Position numbers and translations under genes: made by a program | Source: Candidatus Parcubacteria bacterium | Lineage (GTDB): Bacteria; Patescibacteriota; Minisyncoccia; Phycocordibacterales; JAKAEA01 | Reading direction: 5' to 3' | NCBI GenBank assembly: GCA_019661945.1 | Contig: JAIFWI010000003.1 | Location: 1,126-65,125, forward strand | DNA: 64,000 nt | The notes under the pieces: generated by a model | Told to the model about the DNA's origin: nothing | Database searches by the model: none | What the model saw: only the letters and a program-made list of their open reading frames with translations | Part shown: in pieces, positions 18,067 through 39,712 of the stretch | Layout of the letters: the number at the start of each line of letters is the position of its first letter | Position numbering within the stretch: the stretch's first letter is position 1

Positions 18067-18087
18067 ATGATGTATAATTAAATTACT

Positions 18088-18447: not shown

Positions 18448-18498
18448 TTGGTAAAAAAGGTTCTTTATTATTCCTCCAACCTACGATATGCTTAGCAC

Positions 18499-20776: not shown

Positions 20777-20777
20777 T

Positions 20778-23874: not shown

Positions 23875-23875
23875 T

Positions 23876-24556
23876 ATGTTTTACTTTTCAAATTCAGGTA
23901 AGCGTGGATTTACCAATATTACCGCTGTTGATTATGATGCATATTGGAAAGAACGAGGTTTCAAAATAAATGAAAAGCTTAAGGAGCGGGAAGTCATCAT
24001 TCTAAATGAAATTCCGGCACATGCAAAAGTCTTAGATATTGGTTGCGGCAACTCTCTCTTGCCTGTAAGGCTCAAAGAAAAAGGATGTGATGTAACTGTT
24101 GCAGATATTTCGACAGTAGTTCTTAATGAATATAAAAAGATAGGGTTCAAGACATTACATATCCATCTTGAAGATACGGCTCATCTCCAATTTGCTTCAC
24201 CATTTGATTACATTATTATGAGTGAAGTTCTTGAGCACACTCGAAATCCTGAAGAGATCTTAACTGCTTTGAGACCCTATACTCGAACATTCGTCCTGAC
24301 TATTCCAAATAGTGCATTTTATCGATACCGATTTCACCTCATGTTTACCGGCACATTTATTCGTCAGTGGGTTCATCATCCTGGAGAGCATTTGAGATAT
24401 TGGTCGCATACTGATTTTCTAGCATGGCTCAATGCTTTTAATTTTAACGTTAAAAAAGCTGTCGCTTCCAATGGTTTTGATAGTATGGGTATCCCTTTTT
24501 ATACCTATTTCCCAAATCTTTTTGGGCACCAAATATGTTACTTTGTAGAAACATAA
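23876..24556 (+). CDS. class I SAM-dependent methyltransferase
   Basis: VLDIGCGNS motif I. Confidence 0.7.
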   Translation: MFYFSNSGKRGFTNITAVDYDAYWKERGFKINEKLKEREVIILNEIPAHAKVLDIGCGNSLLPVRLKEKGCDVTVADISTVVLNEYKKIGFKTLHIHLEDTAHLQFASPFDYIIMSEVLEHTRNPEEILTALRPYTRTFVLTIPNSAFYRYRFHLMFTGTFIRQWVHHPGEHLRYWSHTDFLAWLNAFNFNVKKAVASNGFDSMGIPFYTYFPNLFGHQICYFVET

Positions 24557-24565
24557 AAATCCGCT

Positions 24566-25690
24566 ATGAATATTTCCTACATTGCACATATTAGACTTCC
24601 AACGGAGAAGGCTCATGGTATTCAAACTATGAATACTTGTTATAGTTTGGGAACTAAAGGTGCTCATGTCGAATTGGCTATTCCTACTCGACGGAATACG
24701 ATTGATGAAGATCCCTTTACGTATTATGGTCTTAAAAAGAATTTCAAAATCAGGAGACTTTTTTCACCTGATTTGATCCGTTTAGGCATGTGGGGCTATC
24801 GCTTACAGCATGCCTTGTTTATTTTTTCTGCGATAGTATATGGGTTAAGAACTCGATCTGATATATATTATTCACGCGATGAAGTTATCCTCTTATTTCT
24901 CCGGTTTACCGGTAAACGTGTTGTCTGGGAAACCCATGAAGGGCGGTATACATTCCTTAGCCGAATTATTCTTAAGTACATAACGGGTGTGGTGTGTATT
25001 AGTAAGGGTTTACAGCAGTTTTATCAAGAAAAAGGAGTACCTGCCTCGAAGATATGTGTCGCCCATGACGCTGTCGATATAGCTAAATTTAATCTTTCGA
25101 TACGACAGCAGGAAGCTCGTGAGAAAGTTAATCTGCCAACTTATAAGAAAATAGTCACCTATACCGGGAGTCTCTATCTATACAAATGGAAGGGAGTAAA
25201 TGTATTACTTGATGCTGCAAAAAAATTGAATGATGATTATATCACCGTCTTGGTTGGAGGTAGTAAAAAAGAGATTGCCGCAATTAAAGAAAAATATCCT
25301 AGCAATACTATCATCTGTACTGGTCATCGGCCGCATAATGATATTCCATACTATCTTAAAGCTTCTGATGTCTTAGTTATTCCAAATCAGAAAGGTGATA
25401 TTATATCTGAACGTTTTACGTCCCCAATGAAATTGTTTGAATATATGGCCAGTGGCGTACCTATCGTTGCTTCACAGCTGCCTTCTCTCGAGGAAATTCT
25501 CTCATCGCATAATTCGGTATTAGTTCAATCTGATAATGTCCAAGCCTTGGCCGATGCTATCAAGCATATAACAACGGATCCCTTATTTGCGGAGGATATT
25601 CAAAGACAGGCGCTTCGAGATGTACACCAATATACCTGGGATCATCGAGCTGATGTTATATATTCTTTTCTGAAAACATGTATTTCATAA
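24566..25690 (+). CDS. glycosyltransferase, GT4 family
   Basis: GT-B architecture. The C-terminal motif EYMASGVPIVAS is GT4-like. Confidence 0.75.
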   Translation: MNISYIAHIRLPTEKAHGIQTMNTCYSLGTKGAHVELAIPTRRNTIDEDPFTYYGLKKNFKIRRLFSPDLIRLGMWGYRLQHALFIFSAIVYGLRTRSDIYYSRDEVILLFLRFTGKRVVWETHEGRYTFLSRIILKYITGVVCISKGLQQFYQEKGVPASKICVAHDAVDIAKFNLSIRQQEAREKVNLPTYKKIVTYTGSLYLYKWKGVNVLLDAAKKLNDDYITVLVGGSKKEIAAIKEKYPSNTIICTGHRPHNDIPYYLKASDVLVIPNQKGDIISERFTSPMKLFEYMASGVPIVASQLPSLEEILSSHNSVLVQSDNVQALADAIKHITTDPLFAEDIQRQALRDVHQYTWDHRADVIYSFLKTCIS

Positions 25691-26472
25691 AAAAATTGTA
25701 TTCCGATATAGTGTTTGCATTGCTCTATGGAGCGACATTTTTCTCTAAAGTAAAAATAGTAGCAGCCTCATTTCTATTTCCATTTAAAAGAATATTTAAA
25801 CTCACTAAGCCCAAAGCAATTCTGGTTACCCTGAAGGTCCTCGGAAAAGTCTTTCACTTTTACATTACAGATAGTTCTGATCTTGCTGTCTTAAAAGAAG
25901 TCTTTCTTTACAAAGAATATGTAGTTCCAGAAAAAGATCAACCTCACATTATTTTTGATATAGGAAGTCATGTCGGCGTAGCTGCATTATATTTCCATCT
26001 CATCTACCCTCAAGCAAAAATATTTGCCTTTGAACCTGATCCACAAACGTTTCGTAAGTTAGAGCAGAATACTAAACAGTTTCCGGAAATTCAGCCATTC
26101 AACATGGCTTTGAGTAACAAGGAGGGAATAAGTAAGTTCTTCATCTATCCCGGTAGTACTATTTCATCATCACTTATAAAAAGACAAGATAATCAAAAAA
26201 GTATTATGGTGCCGATTAGAACTTTAGAATCTGTCATGAAGCAAAACACGGTATCATCCATTGATCTTATAAAGTTTGACGTTGAAGGTTCTGAGTATGA
26301 ACTGCTTAGGGATTTTATTGGAAAATATAAGCCCAAAATGCTTATCGGTGAGGTACATCTGGACCTCATGTCTGTACCCGAGCAGAGATTTATTGATATG
26401 TTTAACGGATATACTATTATAAAGAAACCGATTAATAAGTATCGATACATTATTAATGTAACTCAATCATGA
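25678..26472 (+). CDS. FkbM-family methyltransferase
   Basis: IIFDIGSHVGVAALYF...FAFEPDPQTF is typical of FkbM-type SAM methyltransferases. Confidence 0.7.
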   Translation: MYFIKKLYSDIVFALLYGATFFSKVKIVAASFLFPFKRIFKLTKPKAILVTLKVLGKVFHFYITDSSDLAVLKEVFLYKEYVVPEKDQPHIIFDIGSHVGVAALYFHLIYPQAKIFAFEPDPQTFRKLEQNTKQFPEIQPFNMALSNKEGISKFFIYPGSTISSSLIKRQDNQKSIMVPIRTLESVMKQNTVSSIDLIKFDVEGSEYELLRDFIGKYKPKMLIGEVHLDLMSVPEQRFIDMFNGYTIIKKPINKYRYIINVTQS

Positions 26473-27197
26473 ATATTAAAGATACTAATTTTTTCAATAA
26501 AGAAAGCTTGATATATTCAGAAAAAAGATATCCGGCCATTGCTAAGAGCTACACCCAATTTTTCTTTAAGGAACGTCTGAGGCTTACCCTTAGTATTTTG
26601 AAAAGGATAACAATAGAAAAAAAAGATCTTTCTCTTTTAGAGATTGGTTGCGCCGACGGTGTTGTTTTAAAAGAAATACAGGCTACACTTCCTGGCACAT
26701 TCTCTAGTTCGATTGGTATCGACATTTCACCTGAAATGATTAGAACTGCAGAGGAGAAATACGGCAGTACAGGCATTGTGTTTAAGGACAGGGCAATATA
26801 TTCGGATACTACCAGGAAAGATTGTATTATTGAAATTGGGGTTATTAATTATGCCTCATTGAATGAAGAGCTTGATTACATATTTTCACATCTTGATAAT
26901 AACGGTATTGCCATAATTTCTTTAGCCGGCACCGGTTCGTTGTGGGATAGAAGAAGAAAGACTGCCGCAGGATTTAAGACATTCCTATCATACCAAGAGT
27001 ATGAAAAGGCTATTACGCAGAAATTTACTATAGTCCAGAGCCTTCCTGTTGGTTTGCCCATACCGCTTATCTGGAAAGCTCCGTTTGTAGGACGTATTAT
27101 CGAGTCTAGTGTAGAAAAAATAGCACGGCCACTTGTACCCAGCCTTTTTCACGAAAAGATTTACATTCTTAAACTCGCACCCAAGAATCAGGAATAA
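26469..27197 (+). CDS. class I SAM-dependent methyltransferase
   Basis: LLEIGCADGVV motif I. Confidence 0.65.
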   Translation: MNIKDTNFFNKESLIYSEKRYPAIAKSYTQFFFKERLRLTLSILKRITIEKKDLSLLEIGCADGVVLKEIQATLPGTFSSSIGIDISPEMIRTAEEKYGSTGIVFKDRAIYSDTTRKDCIIEIGVINYASLNEELDYIFSHLDNNGIAIISLAGTGSLWDRRRKTAAGFKTFLSYQEYEKAITQKFTIVQSLPVGLPIPLIWKAPFVGRIIESSVEKIARPLVPSLFHEKIYILKLAPKNQE

Positions 27198-28074
27198 GAT
27201 CTTTAGTGTTAATATCTGCGCCGAACCATCTTTGAGGGGCGATAACTATTTTTTGCTTATTTTGATTAAGCCAGGCTCCCCACCATGAAAAAGAACTATT
27301 TGCTACGATATTGTGTTTGCACATGCTCATGAGGAGGAGTTCTTCAGGACCAGGAATATTATTTTTTGATACATAGGTTACATTCCCAGGAATAGCGAGT
27401 TCCGATTCCACCCAAGCAATATCGTCTGAAAAAACAAAAAAATGAGGGGTGCTGATGTGGGAGCATATATATGTAATAGCTTTTTGGTAATATTCAGGTG
27501 AACAGGTACCATGTTTCTGGTTGGTATTCGAATTGCTGACATAATCTCCGCGCCGGACATGAATTGAAATTGCCTGCGTTTTACGTATGATTTCTTGTAC
27601 AAGCTTAGCAGGAGCCGAAAATTCATGTTTGAGACTGAATTCATTCCTGATAATTTCTTCGATTGACTGGAAATATTTTTCGCTCTGCCATATTCCTGAA
27701 ATATAGCTGTTATCACGTATCGCCTCAGTCATTTCTTTCTGGAAAGTGAAAGATGGCTCAAGAATAATTTTCCTTAGATTGAGAGGTTTGTGTGCATCGA
27801 TTATTCTATATATCCTCCGCAAAGAGATCTGTAAAAAGCTTTTATCATACATTTTATTGAAACCAAGATTCTTTTTATCTTGAGTTGAAGCTTCTGCTAG
27901 AGATATCTTGAATTTGTGTAACTCAAAAGTGCGTTTAGCTTCACCAGACCCAATATTAGTGTAATAGTCGGTATCAAGCCTAACTTCAAGGCCGGTTTTC
28001 TCTTTAATTGCTCGGGCAAAGGCATATTGAAACATTTGGTTGCCTAGTCCGCCTGAAATTCTGACAATGATCAT
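27169..28074 (-). CDS. alpha-1,2-fucosyltransferase, GT11 family
   Basis: GT11 hallmarks are present: GGLGNQMFQYA, IHVRRGDY and SSFSWWGAWLN. Confidence 0.85.
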   Translation of the reverse strand: MIIVRISGGLGNQMFQYAFARAIKEKTGLEVRLDTDYYTNIGSGEAKRTFELHKFKISLAEASTQDKKNLGFNKMYDKSFLQISLRRIYRIIDAHKPLNLRKIILEPSFTFQKEMTEAIRDNSYISGIWQSEKYFQSIEEIIRNEFSLKHEFSAPAKLVQEIIRKTQAISIHVRRGDYVSNSNTNQKHGTCSPEYYQKAITYICSHISTPHFFVFSDDIAWVESELAIPGNVTYVSKNNIPGPEELLLMSMCKHNIVANSSFSWWGAWLNQNKQKIVIAPQRWFGADINTKDLIPDSWVRV

Positions 28075-28075
28075 A

Positions 28076-30763
28076 TTATTTGAAGTATGTACTATATTTC
28101 TCTTTGTTTTCTAAGATATATTTAGGCAGATCGCTTTCATCAGTCCAAAATGTAAATGTTTTTCTGCCGATAAAGTCCTGATTGTTCATGATTTTGTTCT
28201 CAATATCTGATTTTATGTCTGTTGTATTATATTCCTGATGACCATATGATTCGAGCTTTTTTCTTATTTGATCTGCTCCGCCCATATTCGTGAAATGCCA
28301 TCCGCCGTTTTGTAAGTATATGTATTTGGTTTTACGTGCAGTTCTGAGGTGATTGAGGCAGGCATCTTTAATATTTTTATACTGAGTAACCAATGTTCCT
28401 GCCCAAGGTTCATTTGAGCGATTATTAAAGTAGTAGGCATATACTTTTTGACGTAACTTAAATATATCATTTTTACTGTAATCTATGAGCAGCTGTGGGT
28501 TCCATATTTCATCAACATCACCCACGAAGCATATGTCATTTTCGTTTAAACCAACCAAAGCTTTTTTAATGGACTCTTTTTGGTAAAACTCTTTGAACCA
28601 ATGAATTGCCCCCTTTGCTATGTTATTACTCGTCAGTGAATCGTTGATGATTTGTTTATCTAAAGCACTCATGTTGGGATTGTGCTTCAATCTGTCTCTC
28701 AATTCGTCTTGATTTTTGGGCACATCACGAGTGACATGGTGAATGATTTTATGCTGCCACTTTTTAAATCGATCTTTATTTTCTTCAAAATACAGTGGCT
28801 TAGGCTTTCCAGAAAATGTTTCCGTTGCTTCTACGATTACGAAATAATCTACATAGGGGTCAAGGATTTGCATTCGAAGTTCAAGTAAATCAAATTCATT
28901 TAAAAATGTAACAACATCATATATCTTAATGTTTTTTCTATACTGAGCCATTTCCTGCGGAGATAGCCAAGATTTTTTTGCCTTATATTCATTGATATAT
29001 TCCCGAGCTGTCTTTATTTTTTTCTTAAAGAAATAAGATATATGTGAAAATTTCCTGGCTTTCTTTAAGGCAGTGCGTATTAATGGTTTCATCGATGGTG
29101 GAATTCTTTTCCGAATAGAGACCGGAACTTTTTCCTTAAATAAGGTAATGGCATCAGGCGGCTTAATCATGGTCATATCTGGATCAATCGGGCGTAGCAT
29201 AGTGGCTGATGGTTCAAAACTTGAAGCCCATATGGTATGAAGTGCTCTTTCGACAATATATGCTTCACCCGGAAAAAAGACATAGGAAACAATTACTCTT
29301 AAATTCTCATAAAAAACCTTAGGAAATTTGAGAATATGGGCTTTAGGTACGATATACATTGCTCCCGGAGCAAATCGGGTATATCTAGGCAAAATTGGGT
29401 GTCTAAAGCAGAATTCAAGAAAATCATTATAGCTGTCAAAATATTTTAAAGGATGACCGGGAGCTTTGAGGTATAAACTATTATTGATTTCACAAAAACC
29501 GCCATCGGCAGAGAAGAAACCTTTGGGCCATTGTGGATTATGCATCTTAATATCTTCAAGTGACGTAAAGTACTCATTATTCATTACTCTCTCAAAATAC
29601 TCTCGTCGGACGTGCCGTGGAAACATATTGCCTTTGCCGAAAATAGTCGTCTCTGGCAAGGCATCATAATTATCTATAATAAATGTCAGATAGTCGCTGA
29701 TATTATGCCCGGTGTGTTTGCTTCGTATTACCTTGCTTATATCAATAGTTTTTGGGTATTCACTTTTCTCGCTTTGATCATAAATTACATAGGTATCGGT
29801 GAGGTCTGGAATCCAGCGTATATCATTATTGTAATGTGAGACAACAAGAAAATTCTTATGGATCCTGGGAAAAAAGTATTCCTTATGAGTGTTAATGTAC
29901 TCATCAAGTTCTTTTCGGCATGATTCTGCATTTTGCAAGCTTCCGTTTCTATCCTGATACATCCAGCCTGAAATGATATTATAGCTGCAGCCCCAATAGC
30001 CGTCTGAGGTATTGTACTGAGACCAATATTTAGGCGCAATACAATATCGCAGATCTTTATTAAGCCAAGCAGGCAGGCAGGCAAAGCTCGAATTCGAAAG
30101 AATGAGATATTTAGCATTTTTAACGATAACGTAATCTTTTGAAATACTGAAGTGAAAAACGTCATAATTGGGAAAAAACTTCTTAGCAGTTGCCACATCA
30201 TCGGTAATAACCACAAATGTTAAGTTTTTATTTACCTTGAGTGTGTTTTTAATAGCATCGTCCCAATATTTCTGGGGAAGGAACACTCTTTTATTTTGAA
30301 CGTACTCATTACCGCGAAAATTAATGACACAGATGTTTTCATCTGCGTAGTCATAACATTCATGCTCTTCTTTTACTTTGAGCCATTCTCGGATTTCGCC
30401 TTTTCGGTGCAGGATATACTGTTCATCCTGCATGACCCCGTCTATTTGAGTATTATCCGGAATATCGACAAGATGCTTGTCGAACGTTCGAATATCAACC
30501 CCATTTTCGGGATGAACAATTTTCCGCTCAACATAGTAGTTTTTTATACCTTCTGGCAAGGAAGTCGGTGGTCCACCCTCGGGACCTTTTCCGCCGATAA
30601 CTACTCTACCAAAATCGAGATTGAAAAAATCAGCTCCTTTAAATTTCTCAGGAGATTTGATGCCAAATTCATAACCTTTGTCCTTAGCAATAACCCGTGT
30701 GGTGACGTAACACCACAGCTGATTTCCAAGCCCCTGGCCATTGTATAGTTCCGTAACGATCAT
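28076..30763 (-). CDS. multidomain glycosyltransferase: N-terminal GT11-like domain, uncharacterised middle domain, and C-terminal GT17-like (bisecting-GlcNAc-transferase-like) domain
   Basis: N-terminal GT11 motifs: GQGLGNQLWCYV, NFRGNEY and NSSFACLPAWLN. C-terminal GT17 motifs: NEFDLLELRMQILDPYVDYFVIVEATETFSGKPKPLYF, GDVDEIW and GGWHF. The protein is 895 aa. Confidence 0.75.
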   Translation of the reverse strand: MIVTELYNGQGLGNQLWCYVTTRVIAKDKGYEFGIKSPEKFKGADFFNLDFGRVVIGGKGPEGGPPTSLPEGIKNYYVERKIVHPENGVDIRTFDKHLVDIPDNTQIDGVMQDEQYILHRKGEIREWLKVKEEHECYDYADENICVINFRGNEYVQNKRVFLPQKYWDDAIKNTLKVNKNLTFVVITDDVATAKKFFPNYDVFHFSISKDYVIVKNAKYLILSNSSFACLPAWLNKDLRYCIAPKYWSQYNTSDGYWGCSYNIISGWMYQDRNGSLQNAESCRKELDEYINTHKEYFFPRIHKNFLVVSHYNNDIRWIPDLTDTYVIYDQSEKSEYPKTIDISKVIRSKHTGHNISDYLTFIIDNYDALPETTIFGKGNMFPRHVRREYFERVMNNEYFTSLEDIKMHNPQWPKGFFSADGGFCEINNSLYLKAPGHPLKYFDSYNDFLEFCFRHPILPRYTRFAPGAMYIVPKAHILKFPKVFYENLRVIVSYVFFPGEAYIVERALHTIWASSFEPSATMLRPIDPDMTMIKPPDAITLFKEKVPVSIRKRIPPSMKPLIRTALKKARKFSHISYFFKKKIKTAREYINEYKAKKSWLSPQEMAQYRKNIKIYDVVTFLNEFDLLELRMQILDPYVDYFVIVEATETFSGKPKPLYFEENKDRFKKWQHKIIHHVTRDVPKNQDELRDRLKHNPNMSALDKQIINDSLTSNNIAKGAIHWFKEFYQKESIKKALVGLNENDICFVGDVDEIWNPQLLIDYSKNDIFKLRQKVYAYYFNNRSNEPWAGTLVTQYKNIKDACLNHLRTARKTKYIYLQNGGWHFTNMGGADQIRKKLESYGHQEYNTTDIKSDIENKIMNNQDFIGRKTFTFWTDESDLPKYILENKEKYSTYFK

Positions 30764-32166
30764 ATCCTTCCAAGCAATTTCTTAATTCGAAATTTCAGCA
30801 TAAAGAACCGAGGCATGACTTTTTTATTGTCGTGAAAACCAAAGGGTTCTAGGTCGGAATCCTCTAGACTTTTTTCACAACTAAATTTTGCTGCCACGGA
30901 TACCGGCGCAAATTTTATACCAGCATCTTCCAACTGCTTTCGATAATAGACACACATAATCCCGTCCTCATTGTAGAAACCGGTGCCATTGTCAGTAAAG
31001 GGCAGATTCATATCATGAAGTATTCGGAGCATTCTTTTGCTTCTCAATGAGAATCCGCCGTTTCCAACCCGGACATTGACGCCTTCATTGGTAAAATGGA
31101 CATTTTTTGGCCAAGGCGCACCAATATAGTCATACTTTAAAAATTCATAATCCCATTTATGTGGTCGGAGAATATAGGCGTTATTATGGACGATGATGAT
31201 ATAGTCGCTATCAATATATTCCCATAGATGATAGGCCATAAACTTACTGTAGTCATTTTTGTTTTTTGGATCTTTGCTTTGAAGTTGACCGGGCTTACAC
31301 TGTTTAAATGTGATTTTAGGATTCAAATTCTCTGGTTTTGTGTGTGAAATGAGTACGACATCATGAAAGCGCATACCCTGCATTGAAATCTCAAGGGCTT
31401 TCATACCGCTTGTTGGATCAATGCCGGATACCGCTACGAGGGTTACATCTCTGGTTGTCTTCTCATTAAACTTTTTACCGACATAGTCGAGCTCGTGATT
31501 AACTAATTCATTCGTTATTTCTGTTTGCGAAGTTTGATGACGGCCTATTCTATTCACGACACTAATAGTATTAACAATTTTTGGTTCTCCGAATTTGTCA
31601 TAGCAGCGCTTATAGTAATCGACATCCATGTACCACTTGAGGTTTACATCAAAGAGCAAAGGATTTTGATTCTTAATGGTTAAGACCGAAGGGGAACTGA
31701 TAGTATTTCTGCCGAGGTGAATCTTTTGATTGTATTTTGGATAAAACGGTCTAAAGAATTTCCAGCCGTTTTTAGTATGAATACAGGCAGTGACGAGCCA
31801 GGTATCTTTATTAAGATCAAAGTTTTTAGCAATAACCGCTAGAGCATCCTTGCCATATAGAAAATCGTCGAGACAAAGAAGTTTGAGAATTTTTCCTGTA
31901 CCATGTTTGATAACATTATTAAAGTTTCGGCACATTCCAATGATCGGATCATTGTTTTTATGATACTCAATACTGAGTTTATCTTTATAGGCATTGCAGA
32001 CATCCCTGATGGCACTGTCTTTGGAATAATCAGATATAACTACATTAAAGTCTGTAAACGTCTGCTTGAGCAGAATATCAAAATTATACTTCAAAAACTT
32101 CGCTCCTAATCCGTGCATCTCATATGTCGGAATACACACGCTTATCAATGGATTTTTTTTACTCAT
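30760..32166 (-). CDS. GT2-family glycosyltransferase fused to a C-terminal uncharacterised domain (possibly DUF5672-like)
   Basis: ISVCIPTYE... D.S GT-A motifs are present at the N-terminus. The C-terminal ~200 aa carry a GNGGFSLRS motif. Confidence 0.7.
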   Translation of the reverse strand: MSKKNPLISVCIPTYEMHGLGAKFLKYNFDILLKQTFTDFNVVISDYSKDSAIRDVCNAYKDKLSIEYHKNNDPIIGMCRNFNNVIKHGTGKILKLLCLDDFLYGKDALAVIAKNFDLNKDTWLVTACIHTKNGWKFFRPFYPKYNQKIHLGRNTISSPSVLTIKNQNPLLFDVNLKWYMDVDYYKRCYDKFGEPKIVNTISVVNRIGRHQTSQTEITNELVNHELDYVGKKFNEKTTRDVTLVAVSGIDPTSGMKALEISMQGMRFHDVVLISHTKPENLNPKITFKQCKPGQLQSKDPKNKNDYSKFMAYHLWEYIDSDYIIIVHNNAYILRPHKWDYEFLKYDYIGAPWPKNVHFTNEGVNVRVGNGGFSLRSKRMLRILHDMNLPFTDNGTGFYNEDGIMCVYYRKQLEDAGIKFAPVSVAAKFSCEKSLEDSDLEPFGFHDNKKVMPRFFMLKFRIKKLLGRI

Positions 32167-33043
32167 ATAATTTTTTGATACCTTCTTTTATTGAGACTAA
32201 TGGTTTCCATCCCGGAATTTTCTGGCCCTTACTCCACGGTATCATAACTTCTCGCGGTCGGTAGTCTTTCTTGCTCCAATTAATGTTGAGTTTAAATCCG
32301 GTAGTCTGTTCGAACAGTTCAGCCAGTTTCTTTAATGACATCCGCTCATTCGATGTGATGGCAAATGATTTTCCTTTAAGCTTTTTCTCACTGTCTTTAT
32401 TCAGAAGTTCGATCATTGTGGCGTATCCCTCGATAACATTATCAACAAAACTCATATCAAGGATTTGTTCACCAGGTGACATATCAAGTGGCTCCTTGGA
32501 TTTGCTTATCTTAAGCCAGAGATTAAATATCTTTGATCGGGTATCATTTGGTCCGAAAGTATCACTGAGCTTAATAGTTACAAAATTAAGCGCTGAAGTT
32601 TCAGTATAATACTTTGCAATATCCTCAAATGCTTGTTTCGTTGCGGCATAGAGGTTAACCGGTGAATACTCCGCATCATTATAGTGCTGCCAGAATGTGC
32701 CGGTATTTATAAACCAAGGAATTGAACTTTTAACCGAGGCTTCGAGTACAGCCGTAGAAAAATAGACATTAGAATCAATCAAGTTCTTAATATCTTCAGA
32801 TTTGTGCTGGGCCAGAAAGAGGGAAGCTAAATGGATAACCCCGTCAAAATGTTCTGTCTGCATATGTGAAATCAAATCAGTGACACTGTCGTTAAAGACA
32901 TGGAGCGTAACGTTTTCTTTTTTTAAAGTATCTGTGTTAGTGCTTGGCCGGACTAGGACATGTACAGAGTGATTGTCTGTAACTAATCTTTTAATCAGAT
33001 GACTGCCAATGAATCCGGTTGCACCTGTGACTAATAGTTTCAT
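32159..33043 (-). CDS. NAD(P)-dependent sugar epimerase/reductase (SDR), candidate CDP-dideoxyhexose reductase/synthase
   Basis: LVTGATGFIGSH Rossmann motif. It is co-operonic with the rfbF/rfbG/RmlC-like genes. Confidence 0.7.
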   Translation of the reverse strand: MKLLVTGATGFIGSHLIKRLVTDNHSVHVLVRPSTNTDTLKKENVTLHVFNDSVTDLISHMQTEHFDGVIHLASLFLAQHKSEDIKNLIDSNVYFSTAVLEASVKSSIPWFINTGTFWQHYNDAEYSPVNLYAATKQAFEDIAKYYTETSALNFVTIKLSDTFGPNDTRSKIFNLWLKISKSKEPLDMSPGEQILDMSFVDNVIEGYATMIELLNKDSEKKLKGKSFAITSNERMSLKKLAELFEQTTGFKLNINWSKKDYRPREVMIPWSKGQKIPGWKPLVSIKEGIKKLYE

Positions 33044-33046
33044 ACG

Positions 33047-33595
33047 TTAGGCTTTATAAATAAAAGGGGATTTAAATTCAGCCAAGCTTGGAAATTCCTG
33101 GTCACGTTTTGAAACTATAGGGTGGGCTACAGGCCAGTTAAAACCAAAAGAATCAAATCTAATACCACCTTCATGTTCGGCGCTGCGCATGGTCGACTGT
33201 AAATATGTTGTGCATGAATTATCCTTGAGAGCTAGAAATCCGTGGGCAAATCCAGAAGGAATGTAAATCATCCGGTGATTTTCACTTGATAATTCAACCG
33301 TCTCATACTGTCCATATGTTGGTGATCCTGTACGTAGATCAACAACAGCATCGAGAATTGCGCCAGAGGGCACATATACGAGCTTGGCATGATCTTGGTT
33401 TGGAATTTGAAAATGCATGCCGCGGATGACATTCTTTTTAGAAATGGAAAAAAAGCTTTCTTCAAATATCGAAACAAGGCCATGTTCCACAAACGTATTT
33501 TTGTGGAAAGGTTTTGTGAGCAGGCCGCGTTCGTCGCTGAAGACATCAGGTTCAATAATATATAAGTCTTTTAATTTTGTTGGTATGATCTTCAT
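33047..33595 (-). CDS. RmlC-like cupin sugar-nucleotide 3,5-epimerase
   Basis: dTDP-4-dehydrorhamnose 3,5-epimerase family motifs are present, including RGLHFQ-like (RGMHFQ) and YIPSGFAHGF. The protein is 182 aa. Confidence 0.8.
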   Translation of the reverse strand: MKIIPTKLKDLYIIEPDVFSDERGLLTKPFHKNTFVEHGLVSIFEESFFSISKKNVIRGMHFQIPNQDHAKLVYVPSGAILDAVVDLRTGSPTYGQYETVELSSENHRMIYIPSGFAHGFLALKDNSCTTYLQSTMRSAEHEGGIRFDSFGFNWPVAHPIVSKRDQEFPSLAEFKSPFIYKA

Positions 33596-34692
33596 TGTGT
33601 AGCCCAGGCAACACGTGCCCGTTTTGCGTTATTAATATACTCCTCAAGATCCTGTTCAGTTACCAGTTCTTTTTGAACATAAAATTTATTATACCAAGTC
33701 ACCGTTCTCTCGAAGGTCTTGTGGCTGTTCCAAATACTTTTCCATTTAAGTTTTGTGCGGGCTTTCTTTGAATCAAGCATCAGAAAGCGGTCCTCATGAA
33801 ACGCGTGAGGATCTTCCTTTATTTCATACATAAAAGAATCCCAATGTGTTTTTGCATGTTCAATAACTTTGTATACGGGAATGGCATGTTCATTTGTTGG
33901 CCCAAAGTTCCAGTTATCAGCAAATTCTTTATGACCCTGCAGTAATTTTGAACCAATATGTAAATACCCGCTCAATGCTTCAAGGACATGCTGCCATGGC
34001 CGAGTTGCTCGGGGAAATCGAATGGTAACAGTACGGCCTTTACTAGCTGCCTTCATAAGATCCGGAATCAATCGGTCAGCAGCCCAATCACCACCGCCGA
34101 TGACATTACCAGCACGAACATTGGCGATAAGCGTAGTATGCTTTTTACCGTAGTCATCCGGATTAAAATAAGAATGTCTGAAAGCATGAGAGACAAGTTC
34201 AGCGGCACCCTTTGATGCACTATATGGATCATTGCCGCCCATTGGATCAGTCTCAATATAGCTTTGAGCTTTCCCAGTATTGCGGTAACACTTATCGCTT
34301 GTAATATTAACAATAGCTTTGATATTTCCAACCTTGCGAGCGCTTTCGAGAATATTTACAACTCCCATAATATTTGTTTCAAACGTGTTCACCGGGTCAA
34401 CATATGACAAGCGGACAATAGGCTGGGCGGCCATGTGAAAGATGATATCGGGCTTATATTTTTTTATTGTAGACAGGAGTTTCTTTTTATCGAGGACATC
34501 ACCGGTAATAGATTTGATTGGGAGTTTGAGAAGTTCAAAATGGCTTGGTGTTGTTGGAGTATTTTTTGAATATCCAATTACTTCCGCACCAAGTTTTGTG
34601 AGCCATAACGCCAGCCATGAACCTTTAAATCCAGTGTGGCCGGTAATCAAAATTTTCTTTCCTTTATATACGTTGTTGAATAATCCTTTCAT
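33592..34692 (-). CDS. rfbG: CDP-glucose 4,6-dehydratase
   Basis: ILITGHTGFKGSW..L and overall RfbG/DdhB-like SDR features over 366 aa. Confidence 0.8.
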   Translation of the reverse strand: MKGLFNNVYKGKKILITGHTGFKGSWLALWLTKLGAEVIGYSKNTPTTPSHFELLKLPIKSITGDVLDKKKLLSTIKKYKPDIIFHMAAQPIVRLSYVDPVNTFETNIMGVVNILESARKVGNIKAIVNITSDKCYRNTGKAQSYIETDPMGGNDPYSASKGAAELVSHAFRHSYFNPDDYGKKHTTLIANVRAGNVIGGGDWAADRLIPDLMKAASKGRTVTIRFPRATRPWQHVLEALSGYLHIGSKLLQGHKEFADNWNFGPTNEHAIPVYKVIEHAKTHWDSFMYEIKEDPHAFHEDRFLMLDSKKARTKLKWKSIWNSHKTFERTVTWYNKFYVQKELVTEQDLEEYINNAKRARVAWATQ

Positions 34693-34707
34693 GCAGTAAG
34701 ATACATA

Positions 34708-35484
34708 TTATTTCCAAGTTTTCCAAAACGCTTTGCCTTCATTCCATAATTTATTGAGATATTTGAGATCTCGTTCTGTATCGACACATTCCCAATTTTT
34801 TAAGTGCTTATATACCATGATTTCTCCGGCGGCGGCCGCTTTCTCGAAAACATCATATTCCAAGTCGCAACTTTCGTCATCAGTTGCATACTGCAACAAC
34901 TTTTTATTGAAGACAAAGAAGCCACCATTGATGAGCCCGGTGGTTGTCTGAGGTTTTTCTTTGAATGAAACCACTCGAGAATCTTTTTCAATAATTTCTC
35001 CGAAACGTGATGAAGGACGCACTCCAGTAATGGTCAGCATTTTGCCATGTCCCTTATGAAATTTAATGAGATCCTTAATGTCTATATCAGCAATACCATC
35101 ACCGTAGGTTAGGAGATTGATGTCATCATCAAGGTATTTTTCTATTTTTTTAAGCCGTCCGCCTTTTAGGGTATTGAGGCCAGTATCAACAAGCGATACT
35201 TTCCAATCCATTTCATCATGATCATTAAGAATTTTTGTCTTCTTTGTGCCAAGGTCAATCGTATAATCTGAAGCATGAACATGGTAATTATGGAAGTAGT
35301 TTTTTATGACTTCTTGCTTGTATCCGAGACATATAATGAAGTCTTTGAAATTGTAGTGTGAGTATATCTTCATGATATGCCAAAGAATCGGCTTATCGCC
35401 AATTCGGACCATGGGTTTAGGTATTTCTCCGGTTATGCTTCCGAGGCGCGTTCCATAGCCGCCAGCCAAGATAATCACTTTCAT
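34708..35484 (-). CDS. rfbF: glucose-1-phosphate cytidylyltransferase
   Basis: The N-terminus MKVIILAGGYGTRL..EIPKPMV matches RfbF/DdhA. A TTGCAA-16-TAGTAT promoter lies just upstream and there is no Shine-Dalgarno site. Confidence 0.85.
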   Translation of the reverse strand: MKVIILAGGYGTRLGSITGEIPKPMVRIGDKPILWHIMKIYSHYNFKDFIICLGYKQEVIKNYFHNYHVHASDYTIDLGTKKTKILNDHDEMDWKVSLVDTGLNTLKGGRLKKIEKYLDDDINLLTYGDGIADIDIKDLIKFHKGHGKMLTITGVRPSSRFGEIIEKDSRVVSFKEKPQTTTGLINGGFFVFNKKLLQYATDDESCDLEYDVFEKAAAAGEIMVYKHLKNWECVDTERDLKYLNKLWNEGKAFWKTWK

Positions 35485-35549
35485 AATAGGCCAATACTAC
35501 GATATTTGTAGCGGTTTGCAAAGAGTAGACTGTTCTTCATATAAAATAA

Positions 35550-35575
35550 AAACCCCGGCCTTTCGGTCGGGGATT
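35550..35575 (-). terminator. bidirectional intrinsic terminator (CCCCGGCC-TTTC-GGTCGGGG, flanked by A- and T-runs)
   Basis: The stem is 8 bp. On the minus strand it is followed by TTTTTATTTT. It sits just downstream of the DUF218 gene stop. Confidence 0.65.
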
Positions 35576-35577
35576 TT

Positions 35578-36240
35578 TTACAAATTATCGCGTTGGTGGT
35601 AGTAGGCAATGAGCTCATCGAGTGTAGCGTGCGGCATATACCCAGTACCTGATCGGTCTTTGTATTTCTCGACCCTCTGGTACTCAGCGGCGATCTGGGT
35701 GAAGAGATTGCCAGCGATCGTCGGGCCATTCATGACCATCTTTACTGCCGGAATGCCCCAGTTCACAATCTTGGGGGTTAGGGCATAGACTTTCAGCTGG
35801 ACATTTCGTACCTCCATGACGTACACGATTTGAAGCATGCACCGCAGGAGATGCTCGGGTTGGCTCATAATTGTCAGACTATCCCATTCCTGCTCTAGGG
35901 CCAGGGTAATGAGATTATCGCACTCTGTGCCCGTATGAACTGACGGTGGAATGAACAGAATGTCGCTTTCTTCAACACTCAAGCTACGGAGCCGGTCGAG
36001 CCATGCCTCATAACCCCCATAGGCAATGCCATGCTTTTTGCATTCTGCCGCGGTCATCTTGTTCAGGACAAGGCGTTTCGTCAGTCTGCCATGGAGCATG
36101 TTTCGCCCCAGCTTCAGCTCGATGTCATTTAGTTCAGTCTTCATCACCCCATGGATGAATAAGGCATCAGTCCGTGGCTGCTGGTCGGTAAGGATAAGGA
36201 GCATCGCTTGCATCATCGAAAGGGGACTCGATTGATTCAT
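35578..36240 (-). CDS. DUF218 (YdcF/ElyC-like) domain protein, GC-enriched
   Basis: Its architecture resembles DUF218, including TIMSQPEHLLRCML. A Shine-Dalgarno site GGAGG lies 6 nt upstream. GC content is well above the neighbouring genes. Confidence 0.55.
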   Translation of the reverse strand: MNQSSPLSMMQAMLLILTDQQPRTDALFIHGVMKTELNDIELKLGRNMLHGRLTKRLVLNKMTAAECKKHGIAYGGYEAWLDRLRSLSVEESDILFIPPSVHTGTECDNLITLALEQEWDSLTIMSQPEHLLRCMLQIVYVMEVRNVQLKVYALTPKIVNWGIPAVKMVMNGPTIAGNLFTQIAAEYQRVEKYKDRSGTGYMPHATLDELIAYYHQRDNL

Positions 36241-36293
36241 GACAGACCTCCAGTATGGATTTCTGCGGAACTCTTTCCTGACTGTATAACAGA

Positions 36294-37514
36294 TTAGTAT
36301 TTTGTCAAGAATTCCTCAAATGTTGCTTTGAGATAGGTAACTTGTTCTGAATTTAATCCATGGTGGCAGGCAATGACAAAGGCATTTTCCATGACGTTTT
36401 CAGTGTTTGGAAATTTATTTTGAGCCAACCGATGTGGAATTTTATTGAAACCGGGTTGCTTAGTTACATTACCGGTAAAAACTGGTCGAGTCTGGATATT
36501 ATTCGCTTCAAGGTGTGTCACTAGTTCTAGACGTGTAAACGGTGCATCTTTGGTGATTATAAGAGGAAAGGCCAACCAATTCGTCTCAGTCTTTGGCGTC
36601 TGAACAGCCAAAGTGAAATATTTATTATATTTTGTGAAAAATGCAGTCAGATCGGCAAAGTGTTTCTTCCGAGCCTTTGCAAATTTTGGAAGTTTTTTGA
36701 GTTGTTCTAAAGCAAATGCCGAAGAAAGCTCCAGCGGTAAAAAGTTATAGCCGATTTCACTGAAGATAAATTTATTGTCATACGGAATTCCGGCGAGTCT
36801 GGTTTTAAATCGGTTCTTCATCAGTTCCGAATTTTCCTTTTCGCCAAAGAGGGAAGATTGTCTACCCCAACCGCGTAACACCACTAATCGGTCTGCCCAA
36901 GCTGGATCATTAACCATAATCATTCCACCGCCGCCAGCACCGTTAATAATGTGTGAGCCGTAAAAACTTGTAGTTGTGATGTGAGAATAAGTGCCGGTTG
37001 GTTTGCCTTTATATTTTCCGCCAAGCGTATCACATGAGTCTTCAATAAACCAAAGCTTATGCTTCTTAGCTAGGGCTGCCAATGTATCCATCTGGGGAAT
37101 GTTTCCGATGAGCGAGGGGATCATTAAGGCTTTTGTCTTTGGTGTGATTGCTTTTTCAACCTCTTCAATATTTACAAGATAGGTTGCAGGATCAATGTCA
37201 ACAAAAACTGGTACTAGGCCCTTTTGAATAATCGGAGCGACAACGGTAGCGAATGTTAAAATAGGCGTAATAACCTCACTGCCAGGAGGTAATTGCAAGA
37301 GCTCAAATGCCAGTAAATTGGCTGAAGATCCGGAGTTGACCATGACGCCATATTTTTTGCCGAACATCTTAGAAATCTTTCCTTCAAACTCTTTAGTCAG
37401 GGCTCCTAAGGCAGTATTTCCCTTTAAAATTTTTACGACTGCATTGATTTCTTCCTTTCCGTGGGCCGAATGTGCATAAGGCACTCTGAGCTTCTTTCCT
37501 GTCTGTTTTTTCAT
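36294..37514 (-). CDS. rfbH: DegT/DnrJ/EryC1/StrS-family PMP/PLP-dependent sugar 3-dehydrase (RfbH/DdhC/ColD-like); the active-site Lys is replaced by His
   Basis: DegT-family fold. In SFYGSHIINGAGGGG, the position of the Schiff-base Lys is occupied by His, as in E1/ColD dehydrases. Confidence 0.7.
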   Translation of the reverse strand: MKKQTGKKLRVPYAHSAHGKEEINAVVKILKGNTALGALTKEFEGKISKMFGKKYGVMVNSGSSANLLAFELLQLPPGSEVITPILTFATVVAPIIQKGLVPVFVDIDPATYLVNIEEVEKAITPKTKALMIPSLIGNIPQMDTLAALAKKHKLWFIEDSCDTLGGKYKGKPTGTYSHITTTSFYGSHIINGAGGGGMIMVNDPAWADRLVVLRGWGRQSSLFGEKENSELMKNRFKTRLAGIPYDNKFIFSEIGYNFLPLELSSAFALEQLKKLPKFAKARKKHFADLTAFFTKYNKYFTLAVQTPKTETNWLAFPLIITKDAPFTRLELVTHLEANNIQTRPVFTGNVTKQPGFNKIPHRLAQNKFPNTENVMENAFVIACHHGLNSEQVTYLKATFEEFLTKY

Positions 37515-37515
37515 A

Positions 37516-38796
37516 TTATTTTTGATTAAAACGGTATCTTATCACATAATCGCAAACTGTCTCGTCTGGGTTAATTTTATAATCATAATTCTGAATATCT
37601 GTTTCAACGTTAAATTCTGCAGCATTTTTAATATAATCTTGACTCGTGCCTTGGCGCAGAAAATCAATGTGGACGATATATTTACCTCGGGTTAAATTAA
37701 GGACATCAGTCTCACAAATAATTTCACCTTCAGGCTTCAATGTTTCTCCCCACGTCTTAGCTGTAACATCACTATCGAGACGAAGGACTGTCTGTTGTGA
37801 GTGTGCACTGTCTACCGTAATAACGATTCGAATATCAGTCAGAGGTTCGTTGAAATTGCTGCCGTACTTCATGGCGATTCTCAATGTATCATCACTTTTA
37901 ATCACCGCTGATCCTTTTATATTAGATACTTTAATATCAGTAAATCTAATTTCACCGACATTTCGCTTGGTATTAAGCTCGATACTTGTGGCAGACACAT
38001 TGGCCGAATCAGATTTATTATGCAGGTATTGCTCGACAACTTCCTTGGTATTTCCCATGGCTTTGATTTTTCCGCCTTCCAGTAAAATTGTCCTGGTACA
38101 AAGTTTCTGTACTGTAATTAAATTATGGCTGACAAAGAGTACCGTCCGGCCCTCATTCTTTGTGACCTGCTCCATTTTACCCAAACATTTTTTCTGAAAT
38201 TCTGCATCTCCTACGGCTAGCACTTCATCGACAATGAGAATATCAGGCTCCATGTGAGCAGCTACAGAAAAAGCCAGCCGGACATACATACCAGAAGAAT
38301 AATATTTAACCGGAGTATCAAGGAATTTTTCCACACCGGAAAATTCTACGATGGCATCAAATTTCTGAGCCATCTCTCTTCGAGTCATCCCAAGAATGGC
38401 CCCATTCAAAAATATATTTTCACGGCCTGTAAGTTCAGGGTGAAAGCCTGTGCCGACTTCAAGCAGACTACCGACTCGGCCATAAATTTTCACTTCACCA
38501 GTTGCCGGCGGTGTAATCTGTGAAAGAATTTTAAGGAGGGTTGATTTACCAGCGCCGTTTAAGCCAATGATACCAAGCATCTCACCCTTATTAACAGTAA
38601 AGTTTACGTCCTTAAGTGCCCAAAATTCTTCTTTTGTTTGGATGCCGGCTATTTCTTTGGCTCTGTTCTTAATAAAAGCGAATGGGCTTTTGAAGACATT
38701 GGTAATTACATCTCGAAGGGCGATATAACCTCCTCGCTGATGGTTTATATCATATTTCTTCCCGAGATTCTTTACTTCAATAACTGGTTTTTCCAT
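37516..38796 (-). CDS. wzt: ABC transporter ATP-binding protein Wzt-like with C-terminal extension (polysaccharide export)
   Basis: Walker A GLNGAGKSTLLK, ABC signature LSGGM-like (YSSGM) and a Walker B motif. A ~170-aa C-terminal domain is typical of Wzt. Confidence 0.8.
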   Translation of the reverse strand: MEKPVIEVKNLGKKYDINHQRGGYIALRDVITNVFKSPFAFIKNRAKEIAGIQTKEEFWALKDVNFTVNKGEMLGIIGLNGAGKSTLLKILSQITPPATGEVKIYGRVGSLLEVGTGFHPELTGRENIFLNGAILGMTRREMAQKFDAIVEFSGVEKFLDTPVKYYSSGMYVRLAFSVAAHMEPDILIVDEVLAVGDAEFQKKCLGKMEQVTKNEGRTVLFVSHNLITVQKLCTRTILLEGGKIKAMGNTKEVVEQYLHNKSDSANVSATSIELNTKRNVGEIRFTDIKVSNIKGSAVIKSDDTLRIAMKYGSNFNEPLTDIRIVITVDSAHSQQTVLRLDSDVTAKTWGETLKPEGEIICETDVLNLTRGKYIVHIDFLRQGTSQDYIKNAAEFNVETDIQNYDYKINPDETVCDYVIRYRFNQK

Positions 38797-38802
38797 ATAT
38801 GG

Positions 38803-39645
38803 TTATACAATATCAGCAAAATATCTCTCAACTTTCTTAAATACATATACTCCTATACACAACAATATGAGGCAGGCCGCAAAAGAAATGCCGATTAATC
38901 CCCAATTAATTTCGGTTGTGCCAAGAAGTGTCGCTCGGGCGCTTTGAATAACACCGGTCATGGGATTAAGGGCAAGGAGCCATGAGTATTTCTGAGCAAT
39001 ACTTGCCGGATAGATGACAGGAGTTACGAAAAGGAGCATCTGAATAAAAAATGGCAGGACATAGCGTACATCACGATATTTCACATTTATAGCAGCTAAA
39101 ACCAGTCCCAATCCAACCGAAGCCATAAATGAAATAATGAGGACAAGGGGTATAACAATAATGCTTTCAAGTTTTGGTACAAATCCATAATAGAGCATCA
39201 GGACTACTAAAATACTTGCGGCAATAAAAAAATCTACAAGTTTTGTCAAAACAGACGATAGGGGGAGAATCAGTCTAGGAAAATAGACCTTTGTAATGAT
39301 TGATTGGTTTGCGATTAAACAGTTGCTGGTGTCACCTAGGGCAGATGAAAAAAATTGCCAAAAGAGTAAGCCTGAATAGACGAAGATCGGGTAAGGCACA
39401 TTGTCTGAGGGAATGCTCGCGAGCTTACTGAAGAAAACAGTAAAAATAACCATTGTCGCCAGAGGTTGAAATATGGCCCAGGCTACTCCAACAATTGTTT
39501 GCTTGTAGCGGACCTTGAGGTCTCTCCAGGTAAAAAAGTAGAGGAGTTCTTTATATCTCCATAGTTCAGTTATATCTCTCAATGAAAAAAGTTTCTTGGG
39601 TCTGATTATTGTTAGAGTTTGGCTTTCAGTCATGGGGTGTTTCAT
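38803..39645 (-). CDS. wzm: ABC-2 type transporter permease Wzm-like
   Basis: Six-TM ABC-2 permease pattern. It is adjacent to wzt. Confidence 0.8.
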   Translation of the reverse strand: MKHPMTESQTLTIIRPKKLFSLRDITELWRYKELLYFFTWRDLKVRYKQTIVGVAWAIFQPLATMVIFTVFFSKLASIPSDNVPYPIFVYSGLLFWQFFSSALGDTSNCLIANQSIITKVYFPRLILPLSSVLTKLVDFFIAASILVVLMLYYGFVPKLESIIVIPLVLIISFMASVGLGLVLAAINVKYRDVRYVLPFFIQMLLFVTPVIYPASIAQKYSWLLALNPMTGVIQSARATLLGTTEINWGLIGISFAACLILLCIGVYVFKKVERYFADIV

Positions 39646-39669
39646 TCACAGTAGCAGGGGTGTCACAAG

Positions 39670-39697
39670 TTGTCAAAAATATGCTACTCTATATACA
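39670..39697 (+). promoter_or_regulatory. candidate promoter (TTGTCA ... TATACA) in the divergent intergenic region
   Basis: Hexamers lie upstream of the ATG at 39713. Spacer assignment is ambiguous. Confidence 0.3.
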
Positions 39698-39712
39698 TTA
39701 TTTAATATTTAT

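Follow-up and report, generated by a model that had tools for sequence, protein, structure and literature searches.

The synthesis of cytidine diphosphate (CDP)-3,6-dideoxyhexoses is the standard example of a radical deoxygenation that employs pyridoxamine 5′-phosphate (PMP), an iron-sulfur cluster and a flavin, carried out by the enzyme pair E1 and E3, and the ascA-F cluster of Yersinia pseudotuberculosis is of this asc type. A 2022 review counts only three characterized 3-dehydratases: E1, ColD and SpnQ (PMC8987622). Electrons pass through the enzyme's own [2Fe-2S] cluster in E1 and SpnQ; ColD has no cluster, and its PMP is recycled by glutamate (PMC8987622). Here, we analyze a 64-kb stretch of DNA (hereafter the window; guanine-cytosine (GC) content about 40%) from a Candidatus Parcubacteria bacterium (assembly GCA_019661945.1, contig JAIFWI010000003.1, positions 1,126 to 65,125), in which a minus-strand glycan operon encodes a DegT-family relative of E1 near the genes of a CDP-sugar pathway. 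An original prediction, made from the sequence alone, had read this operon as a CDP-3,6-dideoxyhexose-type pathway with no visible E3 reductase, and had left open whether the DegT protein works like ColD or is served by a reductase encoded elsewhere.

We find that the DegT protein (36294–37514, minus strand) has the histidine of the 3-dehydratases and lacks three of the four cluster ligands of E1. It is probably a variant sugar 3-dehydratase, CDP-linked and cluster-less, that would work in the manner of ColD, judging from its sequence. We therefore favor, with somewhat better than even confidence, a locus that makes and exports a surface polymer containing a CDP-derived 3,6-dideoxy-L-hexose without the E1/E3 iron-sulfur redox pair. 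The wider proposal, that such enzymes form a third, CDP-specific class of nucleotide-sugar 3-dehydratases that needs neither iron-sulfur nor E3 and is driven by an amino acid rather than by NADH, we hold at even chances. In the literature library that we searched, we found neither a description of a cluster-less CDP enzyme nor a report linking bacteria of the candidate phyla radiation (CPR) to CDP-dideoxy sugars.

Active site and cluster ligands of the DegT-like enzyme

The 406-aa DegT protein matches the Pfam family DegT_DnrJ_EryC1 (PF01041) with 272 bits and carries the segment TSFYGSHIINGAGGGG, a stretch that holds no lysine. When the protein is compared by phmmer to the Protein Data Bank (PDB), the histidine of its SFYGSH motif (His188) aligns with His220 of wild-type Yersinia E1, a region that reads SFYPAHH in entry 3bcx. 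In E1, an H220K change reportedly yields an aminotransferase. The original prediction's claim of a histidine at the Schiff-base lysine position is thereby upheld, and the protein does not align as an ordinary, lysine-bearing aminotransferase. The same search ranks E1 first (3bcx, 244 bits), followed by ColD (186 bits) and then by ordinary sugar aminotransferases. An AlphaFold2 model of the protein (predicted local distance difference test (pLDDT) score, 94.5) is matched by Foldseek to E1 (3bcx) with a template modeling (TM) score of 0.88, and to ColD with a TM score of 0.85.

The [2Fe-2S] ligands of E1 are reportedly C193-X57-C251-X-C253-X7-C261, a numbering attributed to Agnihotri 2004 that agrees with the spacing and conservation in our alignment. 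At these four columns the DegT protein has C, S, L and M, so that three of the four ligands are absent: the comparison with E1 and ColD that had been proposed shows Cys251, Cys253 and Cys261 replaced by Ser, Leu and Met. The E1 cluster loop RDWGRDCYCAPGCDNTCKK corresponds to RGWGRQSSLFGEKENSELMKNRF in the DegT protein, which has two cysteines in total.

These features were examined in a family alignment of 126 sequences. Of these, 118 are full-length and each represents a cluster at 50% identity; the others are E1, ColD, the query and five near homologues from Parcubacteria. The column of E1 His220 is histidine in every sequence (126/126). Cysteine occupies all four ligand columns in 46 of the 126, which are the E1-type representatives, and is missing from columns 251, 253 and 261 alike in 74. 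The 120 closest homologues (71–81% identity), which come from Parcubacteria, Paceibacteria, Minisyncoccia and related groups, all keep SFYGSH, and none has a cysteine at 251, 253 or 261. In a set of 42 sequences with identities as low as 36%, 28 columns are invariant, including SGS, D159, S183 and H188.

The conservation bears on a simpler explanation, in which the DegT-like protein is a lysine-less aminotransferase or a non-catalytic relic and its histidine is incidental. The only name given to these proteins by the annotation pipeline PGAP is 'DegT/DnrJ/EryC1/StrS family aminotransferase', never RfbH, and the query scores 349.4 bits against the NCBIfam RfbH equivalog, below its cut-off of 423. 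Such an explanation has to contend with an SFYGSH motif kept in all 120 closest homologues, with the presence of H188 among the invariant columns, and with the fact that a histidine at the lysine position has been described, among characterized members of the fold, only for 3-dehydratases (PMC8987622). We consider it barely credible, and retain the assignment to the 3-dehydratases.

Some His-type 3-dehydratase homologues have unusual architectures. P0131 and P0270 carry intein/Hint domains inside the catalytic domain, which split the DegT match, and P0146, P0184, P0218 and P0221 (810–830 aa) continue with non-homologous sequence after the WGR motif, possibly as insertions.

Search for an E3 reductase

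Among window open reading frames (ORFs) of at least 150 codons, a Pfam search found no protein with a Fer2, FAD_binding_6 or NAD_binding_1 domain. Two E3 sequences, Salmonella RfbI and the Sphingomonas E3, were taken as probes from canonical E1 loci that served as controls. In the plasmid-borne Salmonella rfb cluster, an unannotated 324-aa rfbI ORF lies just ahead of rfbF-rfbG-rfbH, and on the Sphingomonas hengshuiensis plasmid the order is FAD-binding oxidoreductase (E3)-rfbF-rfbG-rfbH-rfbC-like-SDR, where SDR denotes a short-chain dehydrogenase/reductase; in both controls the E3 gene adjoins rfbF. When both probes were compared by tblastn to the window and 92 loci, only the two control loci matched, and the best hit elsewhere had an E-value of 0.65. 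The statement that the locus contains no DdhD/E3 protein is thus borne out by Pfam and tblastn across the window, and the absence of E3 from the 80 loci taken from species genomes (see below) is not a product of how those loci were selected.

Two other approaches were set aside. A regular-expression scan for plant-type ferredoxin/FNR (ferredoxin-NADP reductase) motifs gave sporadic matches in short, probably spurious ORFs, and tblastn was used in its place because the scan would miss Salmonella RfbI. E3–E1 fusions were considered as a source of probes, but the long E1-type representatives bear RmlD-like/SDR domains or inteins, not E3. In the control locus from the plasmid of Salmonella serovar India (L091), rfbI (4040–5011) is intact in the DNA and absent from the PLSDB gene table; a missing E3 annotation there is consequently no evidence of a missing gene.

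The enzyme could nonetheless resemble E1 or SpnQ in its chemistry and receive electrons from outside the window, either from an E3-like protein or from a general ferredoxin/flavodoxin reductase. SpnQ is served by general cellular reductase pairs and has no dedicated E3 (PMC8987622), only 64 kb of the genome are visible, and both sequence (244 versus 186 bits) and structure (TM 0.88 versus 0.85) bring the DegT protein nearer to E1 than to ColD. However, E1 and SpnQ need their own [2Fe-2S] relay, and both the DegT protein, which has two cysteines overall, and all its close homologues lack three of the four cysteine ligands; an E3 would have no cluster to which it could deliver electrons. The 90 non-control loci are equally devoid of E3. 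We judge external electron supply to be very unlikely. Of the two options that the original prediction had left open, the loss of the ligands favors ColD-type chemistry and counts against a remote reductase.

The sugar-nucleotide cassette

The DegT gene belongs to a run of eleven tightly packed minus-strand ORFs, from 39645 down to 27169, in which neighbors overlap or are spaced by a few bases, with sizeable gaps only around a 220-aa ORF (orf220) that follows it. Profile searches with Pfam and NCBIfam recovered the genes that had been named for this operon, in the place and on the strand claimed. RfbF, a glucose-1-phosphate cytidylyltransferase (34708–35484, TIGR02623, 315.4 bits with a cut-off of 300.25), and RfbG, a CDP-glucose 4,6-dehydratase (33592–34692, TIGR02622, 463.5 bits with a cut-off of 278.45), each exceed their equivalog cut-offs, which substantiates their earlier assignment. 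They are followed by an RmlC-like cupin (33047–33595; dTDP_sugar_isom, 185.6 bits; TIGR01221, 159.7 bits with a cut-off of 155.75), a predicted AscE-like C5 epimerase of the CDP-4-keto-3,6-dideoxyhexose, and by an extended SDR (32159–33043; Pfam Epimerase, 110.8 bits), a predicted AscF-like C4 ketoreductase.

The latter two genes had been described as an AscE/AscF-like pair. The RmlC-like protein is 44% identical (171 bits) to the rfbC-like protein encoded after rfbH in the Sphingomonas asc-type cluster, and the SDR is 39% identical (223 bits) to the SDR encoded after the rmlC-like gene there, which agrees with that description; the Sphingomonas reference cluster is itself uncharacterized. The best PDB match of the RmlC-like protein is 5buv (152.7 bits), which we take to be the Y. 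enterocolitica CDP-sugar epimerase WbcA. All PDB matches of the SDR are below 60 bits.

orf220 (35578–36240, minus strand), which lies between the DegT and rfbF genes, was overlooked in the first reading. The protein has no sequence match in Pfam, NCBIfam or the PDB. Its AlphaFold2 model (pLDDT 94.7) finds E. coli YdcF (3ca8, E-value 2e-5) as its best fold match, which identifies it as DUF218/YdcF-like. We collected 43 homologues, about 220–250 aa in size, one of them tagged PF02698 (DUF218); every source that names an organism is Patescibacteria/Parcubacteria. Homologues adjoin the dehydratase gene in L001 (9125–9829, minus strand), L002/L003 (9110–9814, plus strand, in L002) and L012, and the family recurs beside this gene or elsewhere on its contigs. 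The protein was rejected as a substitute for E3: it is a Rossmann-type protein of the DUF218/YdcF kind, has no cofactor motif and is no redox protein. Right after the orf220 stop codon, a terminator scan located a strong GC-rich hairpin (35553–35572), which on the minus strand reads CCCCGACC-GAAA-GGCCGGGG and then TTTTTATTTTAT. Runs of A and of T border the hairpin on opposite sides, giving it the look of a terminator that works in both directions, in which case the operon may consist of two transcription units, one from Wzm and Wzt through DegT to orf220 and another from RfbF through GT11.

Distribution and conserved neighborhood

A scan of GTDB species genomes was reduced to the 80 loci with the highest similarity to the query. 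These come from Patescibacteria, Alpha- and Gammaproteobacteria, Bacteroidota, Gemmatimonadota, Verrucomicrobiota, Candidatus Nitrosopelagicus and one Woesearchaeote; the cultured carriers include Leisingera, Ensifer, Sinorhizobium, Ruegeria, Novosphingobium and Kaistia. Gene context was counted in 58 related loci with at least 4 kb of flank on both sides. An RfbF homologue is present in 42 of the 58 and RfbF together with RfbG in 31, and one of the two lies within 2.5 kb in 34. An RmlC-like gene occurs in 14/58 loci and the full cassette in 4/58. For the distant representatives P0123 and P0142, the genomic context is limited to contigs of 2–3 kb.

In the Parcubacteria loci L001, L002/L003, L004/L005, L009 and L010, DegT, RfbF, RfbG, RmlC and SDR are kept as a block, which is followed by GT2, DUF5672, GT11-like/DUF3431 and GT17 modules that are variously split or fused. 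GT2 and DUF5672 are separate genes in L001, and the GT11-like, DUF3431 and GT17 modules are divided differently in L001, L002 and L004. Plasmids of the cultured marine alphaproteobacteria Leisingera (L089, Leisingera sp. S132, 6968–12479) and Roseibium (L090, Roseibium aggregatum, 7017–12614) instead have the order rfbF-rfbG-'DegT family aminotransferase'-class I S-adenosylmethionine (SAM) methyltransferase (~420 aa)-NAD(P) oxidoreductase, an arrangement that suggests a generically annotated pathway to a C-methylated CDP-deoxysugar. A methyltransferase and an oxidoreductase thus stand in the alphaproteobacteria where an RmlC-like protein and an SDR stand in the window, indicating that the dehydratase module is shared and the tailoring modular.

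The modularity raises the question of whether the dehydratase and the epimerase/reductase pair serve the same pathway. The locus might contain two branches, with the RmlC-like protein and the SDR acting on CDP-4-keto-6-deoxyglucose to give a CDP-6-deoxy-L-hexose while the DegT protein makes a separate 3-deoxy or 4-amino sugar destined for a different position of the glycan. A four-enzyme route of this kind works without a 3-dehydratase in Campylobacter jejuni HS:41 (PMC12369002), the hairpin parts DegT from rfbF-rfbG-rmlC-SDR, the alphaproteobacterial dehydratase gene is followed by other tailoring genes, and SpnQ can transaminate when its reductase is absent (PMC8987622). In the opposite direction, cluster-less DegT domains are fused to RmlC (P0124), to SDR/RmlD-like domains (P0121, P0122, P0127 and P0181) or to both (P0149 and P0166), and single polypeptides of this composition place the three activities in one pathway. 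The five genes are also kept as a block in Parcubacteria, the RmlC-like protein and the SDR match the proteins encoded after rfbH in the asc-type cluster, and Pfam finds no N-acyl- or N-methyltransferase of the amino-sugar type in the operon. Finally, a reductase gene follows the cluster-less enzyme in every annotated context, which fits a keto rather than an amino product. We consider two branches unlikely, and a single pathway through all five enzymes is carried forward below.

Proposed pathway

In the proposed single pathway, RfbF would convert its substrate to CDP-D-glucose and RfbG would yield CDP-4-keto-6-deoxy-D-glucose, as their equivalog-level matches predict. The DegT-like enzyme would bind PMP without a lysine, and His188 would act as the acid/base that expels the C3 hydroxyl, by homology to E1 and ColD. 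Since there are neither [2Fe-2S] ligands nor an E3 partner, the resulting 3,4-glucoseen-PMP adduct would not be reduced by electron transfer. The key step of the proposal is that the adduct would be released and hydrolyzed as in ColD, giving CDP-4-keto-3,6-dideoxy-D-glucose and ammonia. An amino acid, presumably L-glutamate, would regenerate PMP from pyridoxal 5′-phosphate (PLP). There is precedent for such a sequence on another nucleotide sugar: in C. jejuni HS:5, a PLP/glutamate C3-dehydratase, a separate C5-epimerase and a C4-reductase act on GDP-heptose (PMC10440746). In the window, the RmlC-like cupin would epimerize C5 and the SDR would reduce C4, producing a CDP-3,6-dideoxy-L-hexose. 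The final sugar is most likely ascarylose (L-arabino), with the C4 epimer (L-lyxo) as the alternative on stereochemical grounds. The earlier assignment to a CDP-glucose-derived 3,6-dideoxyhexose-type pathway accordingly survives in its gene content, with a His enzyme, an AscE/AscF-like pair and no E3, and the chemistry is predicted from homology.

Several observations weigh against this proposal. In the cluster-less group, the active-site histidine is followed by a hydrophobic residue, versus His-His in both E1 and ColD. A neighbor-joining (NJ) tree places the query among the cluster-less His-hydrophobic sequences, apart from the ColD-type (RAHGW) and E1-type sequences, but the hand-defined cluster-less groups have weak bootstrap values (10–11 of 60 replicates), and we consequently do not claim that they have a single origin. 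All 80 species-genome loci encode cluster-less enzymes, a uniformity that is partly built in, since similarity to the query was the criterion for choosing them. For every cluster-less member, the amino donor and the product are predicted from sequence. The hairpin between DegT/orf220 and the genes from rfbF onward makes co-transcription less than certain, and the absence of E3 covers 64 kb of this genome. Lastly, RfbF and RfbG together with a 3,5-epimerase and a reductase yield CDP-6-deoxy-L-altrose in C. jejuni HS:41 without any 3-dehydratase (PMC12369002).

Glycan assembly and export

Downstream of the cassette, the minus-strand operon continues with three glycosyltransferase genes. The first (30760–32166) unites Glycos_transf_2 and DUF5672 in one protein, as the original prediction of a GT2 fusion had it. 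The second (28076–30763) encodes an 895-aa protein of three domains, a divergent GT11-like N-terminus, DUF3431 and GT17 (Pfam DUF3431 and Glyco_transf_17). The third (27169–28074) is a 301-aa GT11-family glycosyltransferase with the motif HVRRGDY (Glyco_transf_11, 119.5 bits). Over its N-terminal domain, the 895-aa protein shares 24% identity with this GT11 protein (E-value 1e-9); the domain has NFRGNEY in place of HVRRGDY and scores below the Pfam GT11 threshold. The prediction of several GT11 fucosyltransferases therefore reduces to one clear GT11 protein and a second, divergent GT11-like domain, and the fucosyltransferase activity itself is not supported, as the window has no GDP-fucose genes: neither gmd nor fcl was found there, and the only other SDR is GalE-like. 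The GT11 donor may then be the dideoxy sugar. We speculate that the GT11-type enzymes use the CDP-3,6-dideoxy-L-hexose, which is the 3-deoxy analogue of a 6-deoxy-L-hexose, instead of GDP-fucose. GT17 and DUF3431 are mostly eukaryotic families; together with DUF5672, they accompany the sugar cassette in Parcubacteria and are fused in combinations that differ by genome.

At the start of the operon, Wzm (38803–39645) is an ABC-2 type polysaccharide export permease (ABC2_membrane, PF01061, 64 bits) whose top NCBIfam match, the Wzm/RfbD galactan permease, is scored under its cut-off. Wzt (37516–38796) is the export ATPase (ABC_tran, PF00005, 80.7 bits) and bears a C-terminal carbohydrate-binding Wzt_C domain (PF14524, 39.7 bits with a cut-off of 30.4). 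These domain matches confirm the exporter. Divergent from wzm, a plus-strand gene of uncertain start codon (39596–41959) encodes a Wzy_C (O-antigen-ligase-like) membrane protein with C-terminal TPR repeats (Wzy_C, 69.8 bits; TPR families), a putative ligase.

A companion gene cluster on the plus strand (16909–27197) converges on the operon. It contains six GT4 genes identified by Pfam (16909–18066, 18499–19644, 19631–20776, 20778–21818, 21800–22879 and 24566–25690), a GalE-like SDR gene (22876–23874; NCBIfam GalE, 171 bits, under the 262 cut-off) and three SAM methyltransferase genes identified by Pfam (23876–24556, 25678–26472 and 26469–27197), the second of which is FkbM (NCBIfam, 104.7 bits). 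The three methyltransferases are thus present as predicted, although they are neither part of the operon nor upstream of it.

The glycan would be built on a lipid carrier by the GT2, GT11-like and GT17 enzymes and the convergent GT4 enzymes, possibly with a cap added by one or more of the methyltransferases. Export would follow through Wzm/Wzt, with Wzt_C recognizing the terminus of the glycan, in analogy to ABC-transporter-dependent O-antigen systems. By this analogy, the Wzt_C domain and the methyltransferases close by are in keeping with a polymer that is capped at its terminus and exported by an ABC transporter, for which we take the E. coli O8/O9a systems as the model.

Other features of the window

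The block of plus-strand glycosyltransferase genes is immediately preceded by a gene for a VirD4/TrwB-like coupling-protein ATPase (15188–16912, plus strand; DUF87, T4SS-DNA_transf). At 47106–48753 (plus strand), a 2-oxoglutarate-Fe(II) oxygenase gene adjoins an IS200/Y1-transposase-like ORF. A large TPR-bearing protein with only TPR families in Pfam (61415–63856, plus strand) is the second of its kind beside that at 39596–41959 (plus strand). Between 60000 and 62000 the GC content rises to 0.485 over a background of ~0.40, with no RNA gene detected there, and a 207-aa ORF in this region (60124–60747, minus strand) has no Pfam match.

Implications

If the proposed pathway is correct, the simpler chemistry of ColD has been adopted for CDP sugars as well, and ColD-type chemistry would suit the minimal redox metabolism of organisms such as Patescibacteria. 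A systematic annotation gap would be corrected, as the genes are now called generic aminotransferases, and rare, immunogenic dideoxy sugars would be predicted on the surfaces of many uncultured lineages. For chemoenzymatic synthesis, CDP-4-keto-3,6-dideoxyglucose would become accessible with a single enzyme and a light demand for cofactors. Should the enzymes form a third class, CDP-3,6-dideoxyhexoses and their C-methylated relatives would be made far beyond the few enteric pathogens known for them, by producers including many Patescibacteria, marine Alphaproteobacteria, Bacteroidota and Thaumarchaeota, and the GT11-like enzymes of this locus would transfer a dideoxy-L-sugar from a CDP donor, not fucose from GDP.

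Comparison with known systems

E1 (AscC/DdhC/RfbH; CDP-6-deoxy-L-threo-D-glycero-4-hexulose-3-dehydrase) is the closest known counterpart of the window enzyme, with which it shares the fold, the histidine at the lysine position and the top match in both sequence (36% identity) and structure. The gene stands near rfbF and rfbG, as that of E1 does, and its substrate is presumably the same, CDP-4-keto-6-deoxyglucose. Unlike E1, the window enzyme has no Cys251, Cys253 or Cys261, has no E3 (AscD/DdhD/RfbI) nearby, scores below the RfbH cut-off and reads His-Ile where E1 reads His-His.

ColD (WbdK), the GDP-4-keto-6-deoxymannose 3-dehydratase of colitose synthesis, has the same His active site and likewise no iron-sulfur ligands, and the likeness would extend to enamine hydrolysis, glutamate-regenerated PMP and independence from a reductase. 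Nevertheless, the substrate of ColD derives from GDP-mannose, in the context of Gmd and ColC, whereas the window enzyme is encoded beside rfbF/rfbG. The two are 32% identical, the ColD loop is of the RAHGW type and the query falls outside the ColD group in the NJ tree. The ColD pathway proceeds with the bifunctional ColC, while the window has a separate epimerase and reductase. SpnQ, the dTDP-4-keto-2,6-dideoxyglucose 3-dehydratase, is also of the His type and has no dedicated E3 gene in its cluster; it differs in retaining the [2Fe-2S] motif, in requiring ferredoxin/flavodoxin reductase pairs and in acting on a dTDP sugar.

Two C. jejuni pathways share steps with the proposed one. The GDP-3,6-dideoxyheptose pathway of HS:5/HS:11 also combines a 4,6-dehydratase, a PLP/glutamate C3-dehydratase, a cupin C5-epimerase and a C4-reductase (PMC10440746), but on GDP-heptose substrates, and the comparison is one of pathway descriptions, not of sequences. 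The CDP-6-deoxy-L-altrose pathway of HS:41 shares the CDP-glucose synthase, the CDP-glucose 4,6-dehydratase, a cupin epimerase and a C4 reductase (PMC12369002); it has no 3-dehydratase, and its pyranose/furanose mutase is absent from the window.

The asc-type cluster of Sphingomonas has one-to-one counterparts in the window for RfbF (45% identity), RfbG (45%), the RmlC-like protein (44%) and the SDR (39%). In the window, however, E3 is absent, E1 is replaced by a cluster-less homologue with 34% identity, and the dehydratase gene is located upstream of rfbF, beside the transporter genes.

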